Below, piece after piece: positions 4,456 through 27,004 of a stretch of 31,509 nucleotides of DNA (positions are counted from its first letter, which is position 1; each line of letters starts with the position of its first letter). Position numbers and translations under genes: made by a program. The notes under the pieces are model-generated. The model ran no database searches. It was not told where the DNA came from and saw nothing but the letters and a program-made list of their open reading frames with translations. Origin of the DNA: a virus. The DNA lies in the IMG/VR virus record IMGVR_UViG_3300022871_000073; one strand, written 5' to 3'.

Positions 4456-4485
4456 ATTTTATATACGAGAAAGATGAAAAGTTCA
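4456..4485 (-). promoter_or_regulatory. phage promoter-like motif (TGAACTTTTC-N10-GTATATAAAAT)
   Basis: Lies between tRNA array 1 and gene 4121-4426; matches the recurring bipartite motif. Confidence 0.5.
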
Positions 4486-4500
4486 CACCAAACAATATCT

Positions 4501-4583
4501 GTAGCCCAGGTGGACTCGAACCCACAACCCTACAAAGGGACGGGAGTTTAAGTCCCGCGCGTATAACCATATTGTGACATTGT
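4501..4583 (-). tRNA. tRNA-like element, possibly degenerate (Leu-UAA-like anticodon arm and V-arm; acceptor pairing not found)
   Basis: Anticodon stem CGGGA/TCCCG with loop CTTAAAC, V-arm hairpin CCC-TTTGTA-GGG, T-loop TTCGAGT. No pairable 5' acceptor strand found. Confidence 0.3.
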
Positions 4584-4666
4584 AACCCTGGTGGGATTCG
4601 AACCCACAAACCTTTTGGTACCTGATCCTTAATCAGGCGCGTTTTAACCAATTTCGCCACAGAGCC
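4583..4666 (-). tRNA. tRNA, class II (Leu-like; anticodon loop reads AAG)
   Basis: T-arm GTGGG-TTCGAAT-CCCAC, acceptor GGCTCTG/CAGGGTT with G.U pairs, anticodon arm CCTGA-TTAAGGA-TCAGG, V-arm ACC-AAAA-GGT. Confidence 0.45.
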
Positions 4667-4672
4667 ATTTGT

Positions 4673-4746
4673 ACACCAGGAGAGAATCAAACTCTCGAAA
4701 AACAGGGCTTAAGCCTGTTGTGTATTTCATCGTCCACCACAGGTGC
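4673..4746 (-). tRNA. tRNA (anticodon UAA, short V-loop; Leu-like)
   Basis: T-arm GAGAG-TTTGATT-CTCTC; anticodon arm ACAGG-CTTAAGC-CCTGT. Paralog of the next tRNA. Confidence 0.45.
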
Positions 4747-4754
4747 ATAAAAAA

Positions 4755-4829
4755 GTACGCTTGATCGGAATCGAACCGACGAAAGGCACGGTCTAAACGT
4801 GTTATGTATTCCAACGTCCACCACAAGCG
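4755..4829 (-). tRNA. tRNA (anticodon UAG; Leu-like)
   Basis: T-arm GTCGG-TTCGATT-CCGAT, acceptor GCGCTTG/CAAGCGT, anticodon loop TTTAGAC. Confidence 0.45.
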
Positions 4830-4838
4830 CATGAATTA

Positions 4839-4923
4839 GTAACCGAAACGGGAATCGAACCCGTACGAGCGCAATGCTCACGAGATTTTAAGTCTCGCAT
4901 GTCTACCAGTTTCATCATTCGGT
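4839..4923 (-). tRNA. tRNA-Leu(UAA), class II
   Basis: T-arm ACGGG-TTCGATT-CCCGT, anticodon arm CGAGA-CTTAAAA-TCTCG, V-arm GAGC-ATTGC-GCTC. Confidence 0.55.
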
Positions 4924-4951
4924 CATTTCATTATTTCAAAGAGCATTTTTT

Positions 4952-5024
4952 GATGTCCTACCGGGATTTGAACCCGGACTGCCAGATTCAAAATCTGACG
5001 TGTTACCAATTACACTATGGGGAC
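4952..5024 (-). tRNA. tRNA-Gln(UUG)
   Basis: T-arm CCGGG-TTCAAAT-CCCGG; anticodon arm TCAGA-TTTTGAA-TCTGG. Confidence 0.45.
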
Positions 5025-5029
5025 AATTT

Positions 5030-5100
5030 GCTGAGATATTAGGAGTCGAACCTAACTTTGCGAGTTCAAAGCCCGCCGTAAAACCGATATACTGTATCTC
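5030..5100 (-). tRNA. tRNA-Gln(UUG)-like
   Basis: T-arm TTAGG-TTCGACT-CCTAA, acceptor TGAGATA/TATCTCA, anticodon loop CTTTGAA. Confidence 0.45.
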
Positions 5101-5113
5101 AAGTTTTCAACAT

Positions 5114-5144
5114 AAAAAAACCTGGATCAAATTAATGATCCAGG
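5114..5144 (-). terminator. intrinsic terminator / attenuator hairpin upstream of tRNA array 1
   Basis: CCTGGATC-AAATTAAT-GATCCAGG followed on the minus strand by U7. Confidence 0.6.
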
Positions 5145-5177
5145 ATTTCTTAGTTTTATTTTATGACATAACTCTTC

Positions 5178-5240
5178 CTAGACCACTATTTGCAATAGTA
5201 ATTGTTGGAGTTGTAATGTTATGTTATTCATTGTTTTCAT
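5178..5240 (-). CDS. leader peptide MKTMNNITLQLQQLLLQIVV (Leu/Gln-rich)
   Basis: ATG 18 nt after the promoter TATA. Five Leu and four Gln codons. The stop codon lies inside TCTAGGA, which can pair with the terminator 5' strand TCCTGGA. Confidence 0.5.
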   Translation of the reverse strand: MKTMNNITLQLQQLLLQIVV

Positions 5241-5258
5241 GTTTATTAATTATTCTGT

Positions 5259-5288
5259 ATTATATATACTTCAAAATGAAAAAGTTTA
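5259..5288 (-). promoter_or_regulatory. phage promoter-like motif (TAAACTTTTT-N9-GTATATATAAT)
   Basis: Consensus motif upstream of the leader ORF and tRNA array 1. Confidence 0.55.
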
Positions 5289-5335
5289 TCAATTAAATGT
5301 AAATATATCAAAAATGATGATCAGTTTGACATCTA

Positions 5336-5701
5336 TTAAAAAGTATTTAAATCAAGTTTACTTCGCAAAAAATAAATTGCATCGTTGTATGCATTGAGCA
5401 CCATCCGCTCATCGGTACCAAATGATCTTGATATGATTGATCCTAATTCCTCAATTTTCTTGATATCAAATTTTGTTCCATTGACCAGAACATCCATCAC
5501 GTTCATCACAACATCGTTATCGTACTGGCGTAACACTTTACTTTCAAGCTCAAGTATAATTTTATCCTTTGATTTTTCATCCAGCTCTAATGTTGCATCC
5601 TGAACATTTTTCGAGTTTTTCTTGAGTTTTTCAATTTCTGAAGTCCAGGAATCAATCCAAGATTCATTGATAAATTCATCGAAAGATGCGTGGTTTCTCA
5701 T
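5336..5701 (-). CDS. hypothetical protein (121 aa)
   Basis: ORF track; start overlaps the upstream stop (ATGA). Confidence 0.5.
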   Translation of the reverse strand: MRNHASFDEFINESWIDSWTSEIEKLKKNSKNVQDATLELDEKSKDKIILELESKVLRQYDNDVVMNVMDVLVNGTKFDIKKIEELGSIISRSFGTDERMVLNAYNDAIYFLRSKLDLNTF

Positions 5702-25541: not shown

Positions 25542-25547
25542 ATTTTG

Positions 25548-25618
25548 TTGGGATAGCTGGATTCGAACCAACGACCTTCCCCTTTCCGAGGACGCGCTAA
25601 CCACTACGCTATATCCCT
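25548..25618 (-). tRNA. tRNA (anticodon unresolved)
   Basis: T-arm GTTGG-TTCGAAT-CCAGC; acceptor AGGGATA/TATCCCA; D-loop TAGTGGTTAGCGC. Confidence 0.4.
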
Positions 25619-25691
25619 GAACTTTATAAATACCCTTAAACACGTTATGTCGACATTCTGTGTCTAAGTTGCGCTGTATTCATTAAATTCG

Positions 25692-25779
25692 CTCTCGAGG
25701 TAGGATTCGAACCTACGATGGAGTATTAACTCACCAGGTTAACAGCCTGGACCAGTCGACCGCTATGGCAACTCGAGAA
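25692..25779 (-). tRNA. tRNA (anticodon GUU, Asn?; long V-arm)
   Basis: T-arm GTAGG-TTCGAAT-CCTAC; acceptor TCTCGAG/CTCGAGA; anticodon arm CCAGG-CTGTTAA-CCTGG; 17-nt V region. Confidence 0.4.
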
Positions 25780-25784
25780 TTTAA

Positions 25785-26021
25785 TTATCGTATTTTTATG
25801 AAATCTTCATTTTCTATTGCTTTTCTAATGTATCTCATTAAAGTAATCGCTTTAATTTCTTTGTCAAATGGCGCAGATCCAACTTCTTTTGCTTCTGTGC
25901 TTATTGGAAATTGATAAATCTCACCTTCAAATTCAACTGTATAGTAAAGGTTACCACCGCAAAAATAACTGAAATTCGCCAGTTTTGTTCTATCTCTTAT
26001 TACGTCTATTACTTTAATCAT
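25785..26021 (-). CDS. hypothetical protein (78 aa)
   Basis: ORF track; sits between tRNA-Asn and array 5. Confidence 0.45.
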   Translation of the reverse strand: MIKVIDVIRDRTKLANFSYFCGGNLYYTVEFEGEIYQFPISTEAKEVGSAPFDKEIKAITLMRYIRKAIENEDFIKIR

Positions 26022-26041
26022 TTTATTTTAATTTTAATTTG

Positions 26042-26115
26042 AGCTCCGAGTGAGATTCGAACTCACATCCTGGAAATTAACAGTTTCCTGCTTTACCAAT
26101 TATAGCTATCGAAGC
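26042..26115 (-). tRNA. tRNA-Asn(GUU)
   Basis: Acceptor GCTTCGA/TCGGAGC; anticodon arm GGAAA-CTGTTAA-TTTCC; T-arm GTGAG-TTCGAAT-CTCAC. Confidence 0.6.
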
Positions 26116-26117
26116 AT

Positions 26118-26152
26118 AAAAAAACCGGTGAAAAAATTAATTTCCACCGGTT
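26118..26152 (-). terminator. intrinsic terminator / attenuator hairpin upstream of tRNA-Asn
   Basis: AAACCGGTG-(N14 with AAATTAATTTT)-CACCGGTTT followed on the minus strand by U7. Confidence 0.6.
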
Positions 26153-26176
26153 TATAAAAGTTTTTGAAAAACAACA

Positions 26177-26251
26177 TTAAATACCTGATGGATGCAAGAA
26201 ATTATTATTTTCTTGTTCCTCAAAATTTACGATATTTATGTTTCTTTTCAT
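26177..26251 (-). CDS. leader peptide MKRNINIVNFEEQENNNFLHPSGI (Asn/Glu-rich)
   Basis: Six Asn and three Glu codons. Shares the MKRxINI N-terminus with the leader at 26885-26956. A weaker promoter-like motif lies at about 26268-26300; the main promoter is at 26414-26443. Confidence 0.45.
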   Translation of the reverse strand: MKRNINIVNFEEQENNNFLHPSGI

Positions 26252-26413
26252 TGAATTATTTATTAAATTTTAAAAGAATATACCAGCAGCTGATTTATGT
26301 TTCACAATCAATTTAAATGCGAAGGAATCCCATTCTCACTTTCCTCACATACTGTTAGAGCCGAATGGACCTAAACTATTTCATTCTCTTTATTTGTTTA
26401 TTTCTAAACCTTT

Positions 26414-26443
26414 ATTATATATACATCAAAATTTATTAGTTTA
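26414..26443 (-). promoter_or_regulatory. phage promoter-like motif (TAAACTAATA-N10-GTATATATAAT)
   Basis: Motif variant, preceded by the 35-nt repeat element. Confidence 0.45.
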
Positions 26444-26503
26444 TTAATTAATTGTAAATATAACAAAAAATTAATACGAATCCATTACAAATTATTTAAA
26501 AAG

Positions 26504-26575
26504 CACAACTGTCAGGAATTGAACCCGAATCAAAGCTTTTGGAGAGCCCCATGTTACCAATTACACCACAGATGT
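26504..26575 (-). tRNA. tRNA-Trp(CCA)
   Basis: T-arm TCGGG-TTCAATT-CCTGA; acceptor ACATCTG/CAGTTGT; anticodon arm GGGCT-CTCCAAA-AGCTT. Confidence 0.5.
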
Positions 26576-26812
26576 ATGTTATTGCTCCCCCGAACGGTGA
26601 CGATCCGTTTATTTTAATGGAGTGACAGTCCATTTCCTCTCCTCGAGGCCCACAAGGGAATTTTTTATATTTTTTCATGAATTAAAATTCAAGCGTACTA
26701 GACGACCAGTAACCTTTCAGATACCAAATGAGATTTGAACTCATATTTTATTTTCAATATTTACTAAATGTAAACCTAACAAAAAATTTAATACGAATTA
26801 CATCTTTAAACA

Positions 26813-26845
26813 TAAAAAAAATCCGAAAGAAATGTCTTCCGGATT
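26813..26845 (-). terminator. intrinsic terminator / attenuator hairpin upstream of tRNA-Trp
   Basis: AAATCCGGAAG-(ACATTT)-CTTTCGGATTT followed on the minus strand by U7. Confidence 0.6.
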
Positions 26846-26884
26846 TAATGCTGTTTATTTGTTTATATTTCTATATCAACATGA

Positions 26885-26956
26885 CTAATCCGGAAAATTG
26901 CGATCATTCCAATCCCAATCATTACGTACTGTCTCTATGTTGATAAATCTTTTCAT
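26885..26956 (-). CDS. leader peptide MKRFINIETVRNDWDWNDRNFPD (Trp/Asp/Asn-rich)
   Basis: ATG 21 nt after the promoter TATA. Two Trp codons. The final codons and stop (TTCCGGATTAG) are complementary to the terminator 5' strand AATCCGGAA. Confidence 0.5.
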   Translation of the reverse strand: MKRFINIETVRNDWDWNDRNFPD

Positions 26957-26974
26957 TACTTTTACTTTTGTTGT

Positions 26975-27004
26975 ATTATATATACATCAATTTCAAAAAG
27001 TTTA
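26975..27004 (-). promoter_or_regulatory. phage promoter-like motif (TAAACTTTTT-N10-GTATATATAAT)
   Basis: Upstream of the leader ORF. Confidence 0.55.

Follow-up and report, generated by a model that had tools for sequence, protein, structure and literature searches.

The window analysed here is a 31.5-kb stretch of phage DNA (IMG/VR record IMGVR_UViG_3300022871_000073; 31,509 nucleotides (nt), 33% G+C) in which a repeated two-part motif, hereafter class A, stands ahead of protein genes, a tRNA-Met gene and tRNA arrays. The main new finding is that the arrays are preceded by short leader open reading frames (ORFs) whose codons match the tRNAs encoded downstream; an earlier note on this DNA (the original prediction) had mentioned leader ORFs without this match. 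The observations as a whole are best, and quite probably, explained by a class of promoter peculiar to this phage and its relatives, which would drive protein operons, tRNA-Met and attenuators of the tRNA arrays. Why large phages carry dozens of tRNA genes is still debated, with codon-usage compensation, escape from host tRNA cleavage and late-gene translation among the proposed reasons, and any reading of the transcription programme in an uncultured clade of phages has to begin with a set of promoters.

A two-part motif in the intergenic DNA

The class A motif has the form TRAACTTTTY-N9-GTATATAWAATA and spans 31 nt. Eleven copies were found in the window, all on the minus strand (Table 1, where each site is named by the plus-strand coordinate at which its upstream box starts). 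Seven of the copies are exact, and the other four (10474, 16657, 20826 and 26443) differ at 1–4 positions. The TRAACTTTTY half has 14 matches in the window against 2.3 expected, 12 of them on the minus strand, and for the GTATATAWAAT half, where 0.07 matches would be expected, 9 were counted, every one on the minus strand. The original prediction had listed 11 minus-strand copies with a spacer of 9–11 nt; every copy was recovered, with coordinates right to within 0–2 nt, but the measured spacer is exactly 9 nt at all 11 sites. A position weight matrix (PWM), which was built from the same 11 sites and is to that extent circular as a score, gave 25.4–39.9 at the class A sites, 11.8 at the next best position of the window and a maximum of 15.4 in shuffles, a large gap all the same.

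The placement of the motif is equally consistent. All 11 copies lie wholly in DNA outside ORFs and tRNAs, which makes up 18% of the window (P ~6.5e-9), and all are oriented with the genes downstream of them (joint P with the shared strand ~6e-12). From the end of the motif to the first feature, whether a leader ORF, a protein ORF or tRNA-Met, the distance is 1–34 nt at nine sites, ~100 nt at site 19693 and ~160 nt at site 26443. Several copies stand directly behind a stop codon or a terminator, so a new transcription unit must begin there. The motif is not palindromic and has no associated RNA secondary structure. As a separate observation, the minus strand between site 4485 and the 101-amino-acid (aa) ORF carries a tandem duplication, GGAAGTATGAA/GGAAGTATGAC (4426–4450), which yields a four-codon mini-ORF (MKEV) just ahead of the real start codon.

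Class A recurs at equivalent positions in distinct related phages (L163, L184, L016, L155, L104 and L051; L numbers denote the contigs compared), where the boxes are kept and the flanks are not. In L163, whose major vault protein (MVP) homologue is 84% identical to that of the window and whose G+C content is 42%, TGTAAACTTTTC-N9-GTATTTAAAAAAT stands upstream of the MVP gene in the same place as site 16657, with diverged flanks. In L184 (LruC 83% identical, 26% G+C), AAAACTTTTG-N9-GTCATATTAAAAAT is found upstream of a Leu-rich leader and tRNA-Leu. A larger set with no flanking DNA in common with the window (L016, L155, L104, L027, L013, L032/L042 and L030/L031/L120) carries exact or near-exact class A motifs just upstream of leaders, tRNAs or ORFs; these relatives were found via the motif itself, so their motif copies are selected, and the leader–tRNA design lies outside that selection. 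Within this set, class A precedes a leader and a six-tRNA array in L016, occurs as two tandem copies followed by a TATA-only 15-mer identical to that of the window (class B, described below) in L155, is present in three copies in L104 and stands directly before a homologue of the window's HNH gene in L032/L042. The strain variant L081 has an intact box, TAAACTTTTA, where window site 26443 is degenerate. Relatives sharing a DUF4842 protein at ~60% identity (L185, L188 and L189) had neither synteny nor the motif.

The strict 21-position motif has 4 exact copies in the 31.5-kb window, and only 10 singleton matches were found in 596 Gb, one genome being searched for each of 185,579 bacterial and archaeal species. 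Scans of IMG/VR and of metagenomes gave mostly singletons among the matches listed; many of these are chance matches or one unrelated conserved sequence (GGAAACTTTTTTACATGGCC…), and others are real relatives. Thirteen unrelated contigs (L003, L005, L007, L009, L018, L019, L021, L023, L026, L028, L033, L071 and L107) carry an identical GGAAACTTTTTTACATGGCCGTATATAAAATAT, a sequence conserved in some common family of phages; its match to the pattern is coincidental and inflates the singleton counts. A different intergenic repeat, TTATTATATTTATAT(A/C)A…TAAATAATTATACAATG, was seen before many minus-strand genes at 33700–42400 of L161 (LR756500, a 462-kb huge phage); it is unlike class A. Class A is a sequence class new among phage promoters, although conserved phage promoters as such are ordinary.

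Leader ORFs matched to their tRNA arrays

Every tRNA array in the window has the same arrangement upstream: a leader ORF of 20–28 codons, followed by a strong hairpin with a U-tract, and then the tRNAs. We designate the five units A1–A5 (Table 1). The leader ATG lies 17–34 nt past sites 27004, 25259, 10474 and 5288, and the A2 leader is the feature ~160 nt past site 26443. With the phage proteome as reference, all five leaders show enrichment in the amino acids of their own arrays (binomial P 8e-3 to 1.5e-6), and the true pairing of leaders with arrays ranks 1 of 120. When codons were read by eye against anticodons, 26 of the 28 tRNA species across the five arrays had a cognate codon in their own leader. 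In A5, the leader codons TTA, CAA, CTC, CTA and TTG cover all four anticodon species of the array.

Intrinsic terminators are present in all five units and consist of a hairpin of 9–16 base pairs (bp) followed by 6–8 U. The last codons of each leader contain a predicted antiterminator strand of 9–12 nt, complementary to the 5′ arm of the terminator and ending at most 14 nt ahead of the last base of the stop codon or at most 1 nt beyond it. The computed antiterminator duplexes (-11.5 to -14.8 kcal/mol) are stronger than at least 99% of shuffles, and this pairing is present in the predicted minimum-free-energy fold of the nascent transcript in four of the five units. In A4, a further pairing is possible between this strand and the region of regulatory codons, so that the complete 1:2/2:3/3:4 layout of a trp attenuator is present. 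A search of the leaders for known RNA families with Rfam returned none apart from a weak, sub-threshold Thr_leader match in A5 (5111–5229; 31.8 bits, E=0.025).

Among the ~190 loci compared, the design recurs in unrelated contigs that have other tRNA sets and leaders to match. At 4395–4552 of L016, class A is followed by the leader MKTFNKHSRSSKKSFWFKPSS…, a terminator and tRNAs for Lys, Phe, His, Trp, Arg and Ser, and the leader matches them (K/F/H/W/R/S); its antiterminator duplex is -11.6 kcal/mol, with 0/300 shuffles as strong. The leader on the reverse strand of L155 (~6870–6690), MQTFINIKKNWDFIEIVRNDFD…, is visibly related to that of A1 and has an antiterminator of -12.4 kcal/mol (shuffle fraction 0.003). 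The Leu-rich leader of L184 (13117–13275) precedes tRNA-Leu(taa) and has an antiterminator of -10.2 kcal/mol (shuffle fraction 0.007). In L013 (~12780–12640), a leader containing …QVQPQDQDP… stands before tRNAs for Gln, Asp and Pro (Q/D/P), and a terminator is present; L042 is a weaker case of the design. The one relative returned by an MVP search in IMG/VR, the GC-rich L183 (43% identical), lacks the leader design: its tRNA array has no leader, so the design is not universal.

From these features, we infer that the leader ORF–terminator units are probably ribosome-mediated attenuators of the tRNA arrays. RNA polymerase would initiate from class A, and three of the units may have an additional start at an upstream second element (a further repeat, described below); a ribosome would translate the leader. 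With the tRNAs called for by the leader plentiful, the ribosome would reach the end of the ORF and cover the antiterminator strand, the terminator would form and the array would be off. With one of these tRNAs scarce, the ribosome would stall upstream, the antiterminator would pair with the 5′ arm of the terminator and the polymerase would read into the array. The outcome would be negative feedback on the phage tRNA supply, set separately for each array. We consider it fairly probable that phage promoters feed a demand-sensing tRNA circuit of this kind, in which the leader serves as a "codon menu" and any one shortage switches on the whole array. Such units suggest that the phage gauges translation capacity codon by codon and tops up the tRNAs in short supply.

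Alternatively, the leaders may be chance ORFs, ordinary small genes or small RNAs, the hairpins plain terminators, and the arrays may be transcribed from other promoters, for example the second element, with no attenuation; we regard this as unlikely. Some observations do weigh against attenuation. Short ORFs are common in AT-rich DNA, and the translation of these short leaders and the readthrough of their terminators are predictions. In A1, ~150 nt including a copy of the second element lie between the terminator and the first tRNA, and that tRNA, called as Asp by ARAGORN, has no Rfam support. The antiterminator of L013 is not significant. Against the alternative stand the amino-acid and codon match of each leader, the first rank of the true pairing, the antiterminator strands in the last codons of five of five leaders and the recurrence of the design with matching leaders in unrelated contigs. 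Moreover, the first tRNA of A2, A4 and A5 begins 3–40 nt past the terminator, which leaves no room for a promoter.

The predicted units resemble the known leader-peptide attenuators (trp, his, leu, thr, ilv, pheA and pheST) in having a short ORF of regulatory codons, an intrinsic terminator and an antiterminator that a ribosome can cover. However, their targets are tRNA genes instead of biosynthetic or synthetase genes, their leaders mix up to nine amino acids whereas the known ones repeat one or two, and they are phage-encoded and would sense the supply of tRNAs no less than that of amino acids. T-box riboswitches similarly tune translation-related genes to a specific tRNA state via a terminator/antiterminator switch, but they do so independently of translation, by direct binding of a single uncharged tRNA to the specifier codon and the T-box sequence. 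The present units instead have an ORF that runs from ATG to stop and contains many different codons, and they lack a T-box motif; no T-box match was returned by Rfam at E ≤1 in the window. In the literature searched, nothing relevant was found on leader-peptide control of tRNA genes or phage tRNA arrays, or on the motif strings. The Escherichia coli tRNA-Phe gene pheV, a conceivable precedent with a Phe-rich leader, was set aside, as its upstream region in MG1655 has no leader ORF or terminator.

If the attenuators act as proposed, tRNA genes would for the first time be seen under the control of leader-peptide attenuation, and trp-type attenuation would be extended to a new class of target gene. 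The attenuators would also be the first evidence that phage tRNAs are regulated homeostatically rather than expressed constitutively. For annotators, a short ORF that mirrors the composition of the next tRNA array would provide a signature to look for in other phages and in bacterial tRNA arrays, and the compact parts could serve synthetic biology as tRNA-responsive switches.

Predicted promoter geometry and the reader of the motif

The identification of class A as a promoter is well supported and quite probable: all the sequence-level tests made, on statistics, placement, fixed spacing, start-site position and conservation, agree with it. Two tRNA genes constrain the start site. In the window, tRNA-Met (22755) begins 4–5 nt past the motif, and in the unrelated contig L051 a tRNA begins 3 nt past an exact copy. 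If the motif promotes these genes, transcription would start 3–5 nt downstream of it, which would put TATATA at about -13 to -8, with the upstream box occupying about -34 to -25; for the class in general, a start 3–6 nt past the motif is predicted. Both TAWAAT and TATATA lie inside GTATATAWAAT, and the choice of the -10 element hinges on the start site; the two tRNA starts favor TATATA. The TATATA core would thus act as a -10-type element, with TRAACTTTTY in the place of a -35 element or an activator box. The positions given in the original prediction (box about -33 to -24, TATA about -13 to -4) agree with those derived from the tRNA starts. The 11 copies would head three kinds of unit, namely protein operons (the MVP homologue, the 365-aa ORF, the 88-aa ORF and the 4426–1357 operon), one tRNA-Met with almost no 5′ leader, and four or five leader-peptide attenuators.

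Several points weigh against this reading, one of them the circularity of the PWM. In the window and the reachable flanks, no genes were found for a sigma factor, a gp55-like protein, gp33, a MotA-like or AsiA-like protein or an RNA polymerase. At sites 7898 and 20826, the ATG lies 2–4 nt past the motif, which requires leaderless mRNAs there unless these sites serve other purposes. Site 26443 is degenerate and stands 160 nt from its leader. Class A is also missing from distant relatives whose MVP is 50–57% identical (L161, L162, L164 and L166), and the relaxed motif is not enriched in relatives at this level (LR756500, LR756501 and the 373-kb and 53-kb contigs), so footprinting at that distance is uninformative. 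The recognition sequence turns over quickly, as phage promoters do.

As to what reads the motif, host core RNA polymerase would be directed to it by a phage-encoded specificity factor. We infer a phage-directed host polymerase as the preferred reader, with a sigma-like protein and a MotA-type activator equally open as the factor. The phage-specific sigma factor or RNA polymerase suggested in the original prediction is a possible reader. As an observation on its own, L188, a related 132-kb contig, encodes at 1–118 a small protein that resembles the C-terminal domain of the polymerase alpha subunit; this hints that the phage group tampers with host polymerase, and the protein may interfere with host promoter recognition.

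A quite unlikely alternative is that class A is read by unmodified host RNA polymerase with a host sigma factor, either an extracytoplasmic function (ECF)-type alternative or an unusual housekeeping one, and is not phage-specific. Promoters of ECF sigma factors have an AAC-containing -35 element and a CGT-containing -10 element, usually spaced by 16–17 nt. The upstream box of class A, with (G/A)AAC followed by T's, resembles such -35 elements, and AAC is present at all 11 sites, whereas CGT (as CGTATA at the downstream element) occurs at only 3 of the 11, and the distance from AAC to (C)GT is 13–14 nt. An ECF-type motif with a CGT -10 box has been documented in Flavobacterium (PMC9723704). It would nevertheless be odd for 11 promoters packed into 22 kb of phage DNA to belong to an ECF regulon, and the strict motif never occurs more than once per bacterial genome among the 185,579 species.

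Patterns of housekeeping sigma factors fared no better. Sigma-70-type sites are rarer in the window than expected (73 compared with 94 in shuffles), and the best alignment of class A with a TTGACA-like -35 hexamer, TAAACT or AAACTT, gives at most 3/6 matches. The -7 consensus of the Bacteroidota sigma-A factor is TAnnTTTG at -12 to -5 (PMC9723704). Class A shares with these promoters its A/T richness, a TA at about -12/-11 and a likely host phylum, but none of the 11 sites has TTTG after TA, and the place of the -33 TTTG is taken by TRAACTTTTY. In the window, TANNTTTG is not enriched (52 matches against 49 expected). The original prediction had held that the motif is not the Bacteroidetes sigma-A consensus, and this was borne out.

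Among phage promoters, the middle promoters of T4 are the closest comparison for the preferred phage-directed reading. They pair a sigma-70 -10 element with a MotA box whose consensus is (a/t)(a/t)(a/t)TGCTT(t/c)A and whose centre lies at -30, and they are used through sigma appropriation by MotA and AsiA. Like them, class A has a phage-specific box of 9–10 bp near -30 instead of a -35 element, plus an A/T-rich -10; some copies stand in tandem downstream of another promoter-like element, and the copies serve tRNAs and small non-structural genes. However, TRAACTTTTY has only CTTT in common with the MotA consensus, no MotA or AsiA homologues were found among the window ORFs, and the probable host belongs to the Bacteroidota, whose sigma-A recognizes another -7 element. 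AsiA-like proteins are encoded by some huge phages (PMC7162821).

A second class of sites, class B, consists of the TATA-only sequence RATATATAAAAYAAA, which has 5 exact copies in the window against 0.26 expected, each 4–10 nt before an ATG. Classes A and B have the core TATATAAAAT in common; the base in front of it is G in class A and A in class B, and class B has no conserved upstream box. Four of the partial copies listed in the original prediction (6490, 9045, 10700 and 13915) proved to be exact class B sites; the one at 7430 is weak, with only GGATATATAATACATG, and none is present at 23200 on the plus strand. The "T4-late-like" label given there fits class B better, whereas the bipartite layout of class A is nearer to that of a T4 middle promoter. 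T4-type late promoters have only TATAAATA at -10 and depend on gp55, gp33 and the sliding clamp. Class B likewise has only an extended TATA-type -10 near the start codon, its core TATAAAAT resembles TATAAATA, and the class A-carrying relative L013 has T4-like gp23 and gp20 genes. On the other hand, TATATAAAAT(A) of class B has one extra A and is not an exact TATAAATA, class A has its upstream box, gp55 and gp33 were not found in the window and the reachable flanks, and the class B genes are a homing endonuclease and small ORFs rather than structural genes. In L013, the gp23 gene and the neighboring 703-aa gene are preceded by a different repeat, AAAAATCCACACTTGTAAAA, and then a TATATA-type element (minus strand, upstream of 2012 and 4208); this repeat may be the late promoter of L013.

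The second repeated element, ATTCGTAWYAWATTTTTTGTTATATTTAC (ATTCGTAWYAWATTTTTTGTTAKRTTTAC), is 22–30 nt long, carries a TAnnTTTA box and occurs in 4 copies in the window, 3 of which lie 10–40 nt upstream of class A sites. Its TAnnTTTA box is close to the Bacteroidota -7 consensus, and its sequence (…TTTTTTGTTATATTTACA) is nearer to that consensus than class A is. It may be a host-type, early promoter placed in tandem, and its arrangement with class A resembles the tandem early-plus-middle promoters of T4. In L013, TTTGTACTATATTTGTAC is found in the equivalent position.

It is improbable that class A acts in RNA instead, as a processing or stability signal or a translation-initiation enhancer on long polycistronic transcripts. 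In favor of such a role, the motif keeps to one strand and directly precedes tRNAs and start codons, class B stands at a nearly fixed 4–10 nt from its ATGs, and Bacteroidota-type starts without Shine-Dalgarno sequences and with A/T-rich leaders have been described (PMC7797042, PMC7162821). However, with its two rigidly spaced boxes and TATA core, the 31-nt element has the form of a promoter, several copies stand where a new start is needed, and no RNA structure is tied to the motif. The same element precedes untranslated tRNA genes as well as ORFs, at 1 to 160 nt, so it is not a ribosome-binding signal. More improbable still is a role as a boundary of mobile or recombining cassettes of the T4 promoter-stem-loop type, or as a homing-endonuclease target, kept by recombination: homing endonuclease genes are present (NUMOD3 at 8361–9044; HNH/NUMOD4 outside the window in L035) and the small ORFs and tRNA blocks next to the motifs vary from relative to relative, but T4-type cassettes are themselves built around promoters, which makes this a complement to the promoter reading and not a replacement, and the motif is kept in phages without common flanking DNA, is not palindromic and is always gene-oriented.

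Table 1. Class A and class B sites, second elements and predicted attenuators in the window. Scores are PWM scores for class A and antiterminator duplex energies for attenuators.
Feature	Position	Strand	Context	Score
Class A 27004, exact	26973..27004	-	upstream of leader A1, ATG 17 nt past motif	39.9
Class A 26443, degenerate box TAAACTAATA	26412..26443	-	~160 nt upstream of leader A2	31.1
Class A 25259, exact	25228..25259	-	upstream of leader A3, ATG 34 nt past motif	39.0
Class A 22789, exact	22758..22789	-	tRNA-Met(cat) begins 4–5 nt past 11-mer	34.5
Class A 20826, weakest (TATA half TTATTATAAAT)	20795..20826	-	ATG of 365-aa ORF 3–4 nt on	25.4
Class A 19693, exact	19662..19693	-	right behind stop codon of 365-aa ORF	36.8
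Second TATA element	19637-19648	-	near class A 19693; next ATG 19564, ~100 nt downstream	
Class A 16657 (GTATATAATAT)	16626..16657	-	upstream of MVP homologue, ATG 16593	31.1
Class A 10474, box TAAACTTTAC	10443..10474	-	upstream of leader A4	30.4
Class A 7898, exact	7867..7898	-	right behind tRNA-Gly; ATG of 88-aa ORF 2–3 nt on	38.4
Class A 5288, exact	5257..5288	-	upstream of leader A5	36.4
Class A 4485, exact	4454..4485	-	right behind tRNA-Leu array; heads operon 4426-1357	35.9
Attenuator A1 (predicted)	26814..26956	-	leader MKRFINIETVRNDWDWNDRNFPD 26956-26885; antiterminator 26898-26886; terminator 26846-26814; downstream tRNAs Asp, Trp, then Asn, Asn, Phe, Glu, Glu (A2 set)	-14.8 kcal/mol; 0/300 shuffles as strong
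Attenuator A2 (predicted)	26118..26251	-	leader MKRNINIVNFEEQENNNFLHPSGI 26251-26177; antiterminator 26193-26182; terminator 26153-26118; tRNA-Asn 3 nt past terminator, then Asn, Phe, Glu, Glu	-11.5 kcal/mol; shuffle fraction 0.01
Attenuator A3 (predicted)	25053..25194	-	leader MQQIVNIIKRRFFMVMIIKSGTGYLL 25194-25114; antiterminator 25133-25124; terminator 25090-25053; downstream tRNAs Lys, Ile, Met, Arg, Phe, Phe, Met, Met, Val	-14.7 kcal/mol; 0/300 shuffles as strong
Attenuator A4 (predicted)	10268..10417	-	leader MNTLSYTYRPSSSPAHTCGGSGPVCIKT 10417-10331 (22/27 residues in array set, P=1.5e-6); antiterminator 10355-10344; terminator 10299-10268; downstream ?(gg), Ala, Pro, Thr, Tyr, His, Ser, Thr, HNH gene, Cys, Arg, Gly, Arg, Gly	-14.4 kcal/mol; shuffle fraction 0.007
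Attenuator A5 (predicted)	5114..5240	-	leader MKTMNNITLQLQQLLLQIVV 5240-5178; antiterminator 5186-5176, overlapping stop codon; terminator 5144-5114; downstream tRNAs Gln(ttg) x2, Leu(taa, tag, taa, aag)	-12.6 kcal/mol; shuffle fraction 0.003
Class B GATATATAAAATAAA	635..649	+	9 nt before ATG 659; not listed in the original prediction	
Class B	6492..6506	-	8 nt before ATG 6483	
Class B	9028..9042	-	before homing-endonuclease ORF, ATG 9020	
Class B	10698..10712	-	10 nt before ATG 10687	
Class B	13915..13929	-	4 nt before ATG 13910	
Second element ATTCGTATTAATTTTTTGTTATATTTACA	26453..26481	-	abuts class A 26443; TAnnTTTA box	
Second element, copy 2	26769..26798	-	behind A1 terminator	
Second element, copy 3	10515..10544	-	40 nt upstream of class A 10474	
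Second element, copy 4 (shorter)	5298..5319	-	10 nt upstream of class A 5288	

Phage identity and gene content

The window encodes ~55 ORFs, nearly all on the minus strand, and ARAGORN called 36 tRNAs, of which 35 were confirmed by Rfam. A megablast search of the window against 50,697 phage records returned only tRNA matches and no close cultured relative. The same phage is present in several ENA, Logan and JGI assemblies (ERZ27315886, ERZ27315925 and ERZ27316330; SRR7529099 and SRR7527650; the Ga0222694, Ga0075122 and Ga0307992 series); these add ~2 kb with an HNH gene on the left flank (HNH/NUMOD4, just outside the window in L035), and the right-side contigs of 2–3 kb break at a repeat. A look-up of the rightmost ORF returned no record. 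At this edge of the window (~31400–31509, minus strand), at least 6 tandem, in-frame copies of the 18-bp unit GGGTGACACAGGACCAAC were observed where the public assemblies break, and the gene that contains them looks like a collagen-like or tail-fibre gene.

The window proteins include a T4 gp30.3-family protein, a metallophosphoesterase, a GNAT acetyltransferase, a LysM endolysin and GH16, receiver-domain, TonB_C and LruC/DUF4842 proteins. A full-length homologue of the eukaryotic MVP is encoded at 14179–16593 on the minus strand (Pfam MVP_shoulder, Vault_3 and Band_7). More than 6,000 database proteins match it at E ≤1e-20, many of them on contigs of 100–500 kb, including 462-kb and 735-kb huge phages. 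A tblastn search with MVP against the phage records returned only the huge phages LR756500, LR756501 and LR756503 (462-kb and 735-kb), at ~50% identity, and a literature search on the major vault protein in phages or jumbo phages found no paper. The clade of those huge phages is predicted to infect Bacteroidetes (PMC7162821). The TonB_C and LruC/DUF4842 genes of the window point to the same phylum, the best bacterial matches of the LruC protein are from Bacteroidota, the start codons of the window have no Shine-Dalgarno sequences, and the motif-sharing relatives carry T4-like gp23 and gp20 genes and a PorP/SprF gene. The window probably comes from a large AT-rich, tRNA-rich phage with T4-like or huge-phage features and a Bacteroidota host.

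The NUMOD3 homing-endonuclease gene (8361–9044, minus strand) lies inside a tRNA array, between tRNA-Thr and tRNA-Cys, and has its own class B element. Its N-terminus is 65–70% identical to ORFs among the tRNAs of L032/L042 and L155. A homologue search with the ORF at 5698–6483 returned only the protein itself. A stand-alone response-regulator receiver domain of 95 aa is encoded at 28606–28893 on the minus strand, and L185/L186 has a 121-aa receiver-domain ORF.

Four minus-strand tRNA calls deserve mention individually. The ARAGORN tRNA-Asp at 26584–26659 has an atypical T-loop and was not found by Rfam, and an extra, sub-threshold tRNA at 8229–8300 was reported by Rfam and missed by ARAGORN. 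The tRNA at 10142–10225 has an unassignable anticodon, "gg"; because its leader contains CCC, it may be Pro-GGG. The tRNA-Met at 22682–22755 is the only tRNA in the window without a leader ORF and, with its unpaired 1:72 position and GGG/CCC anticodon stem, looks like an initiator.

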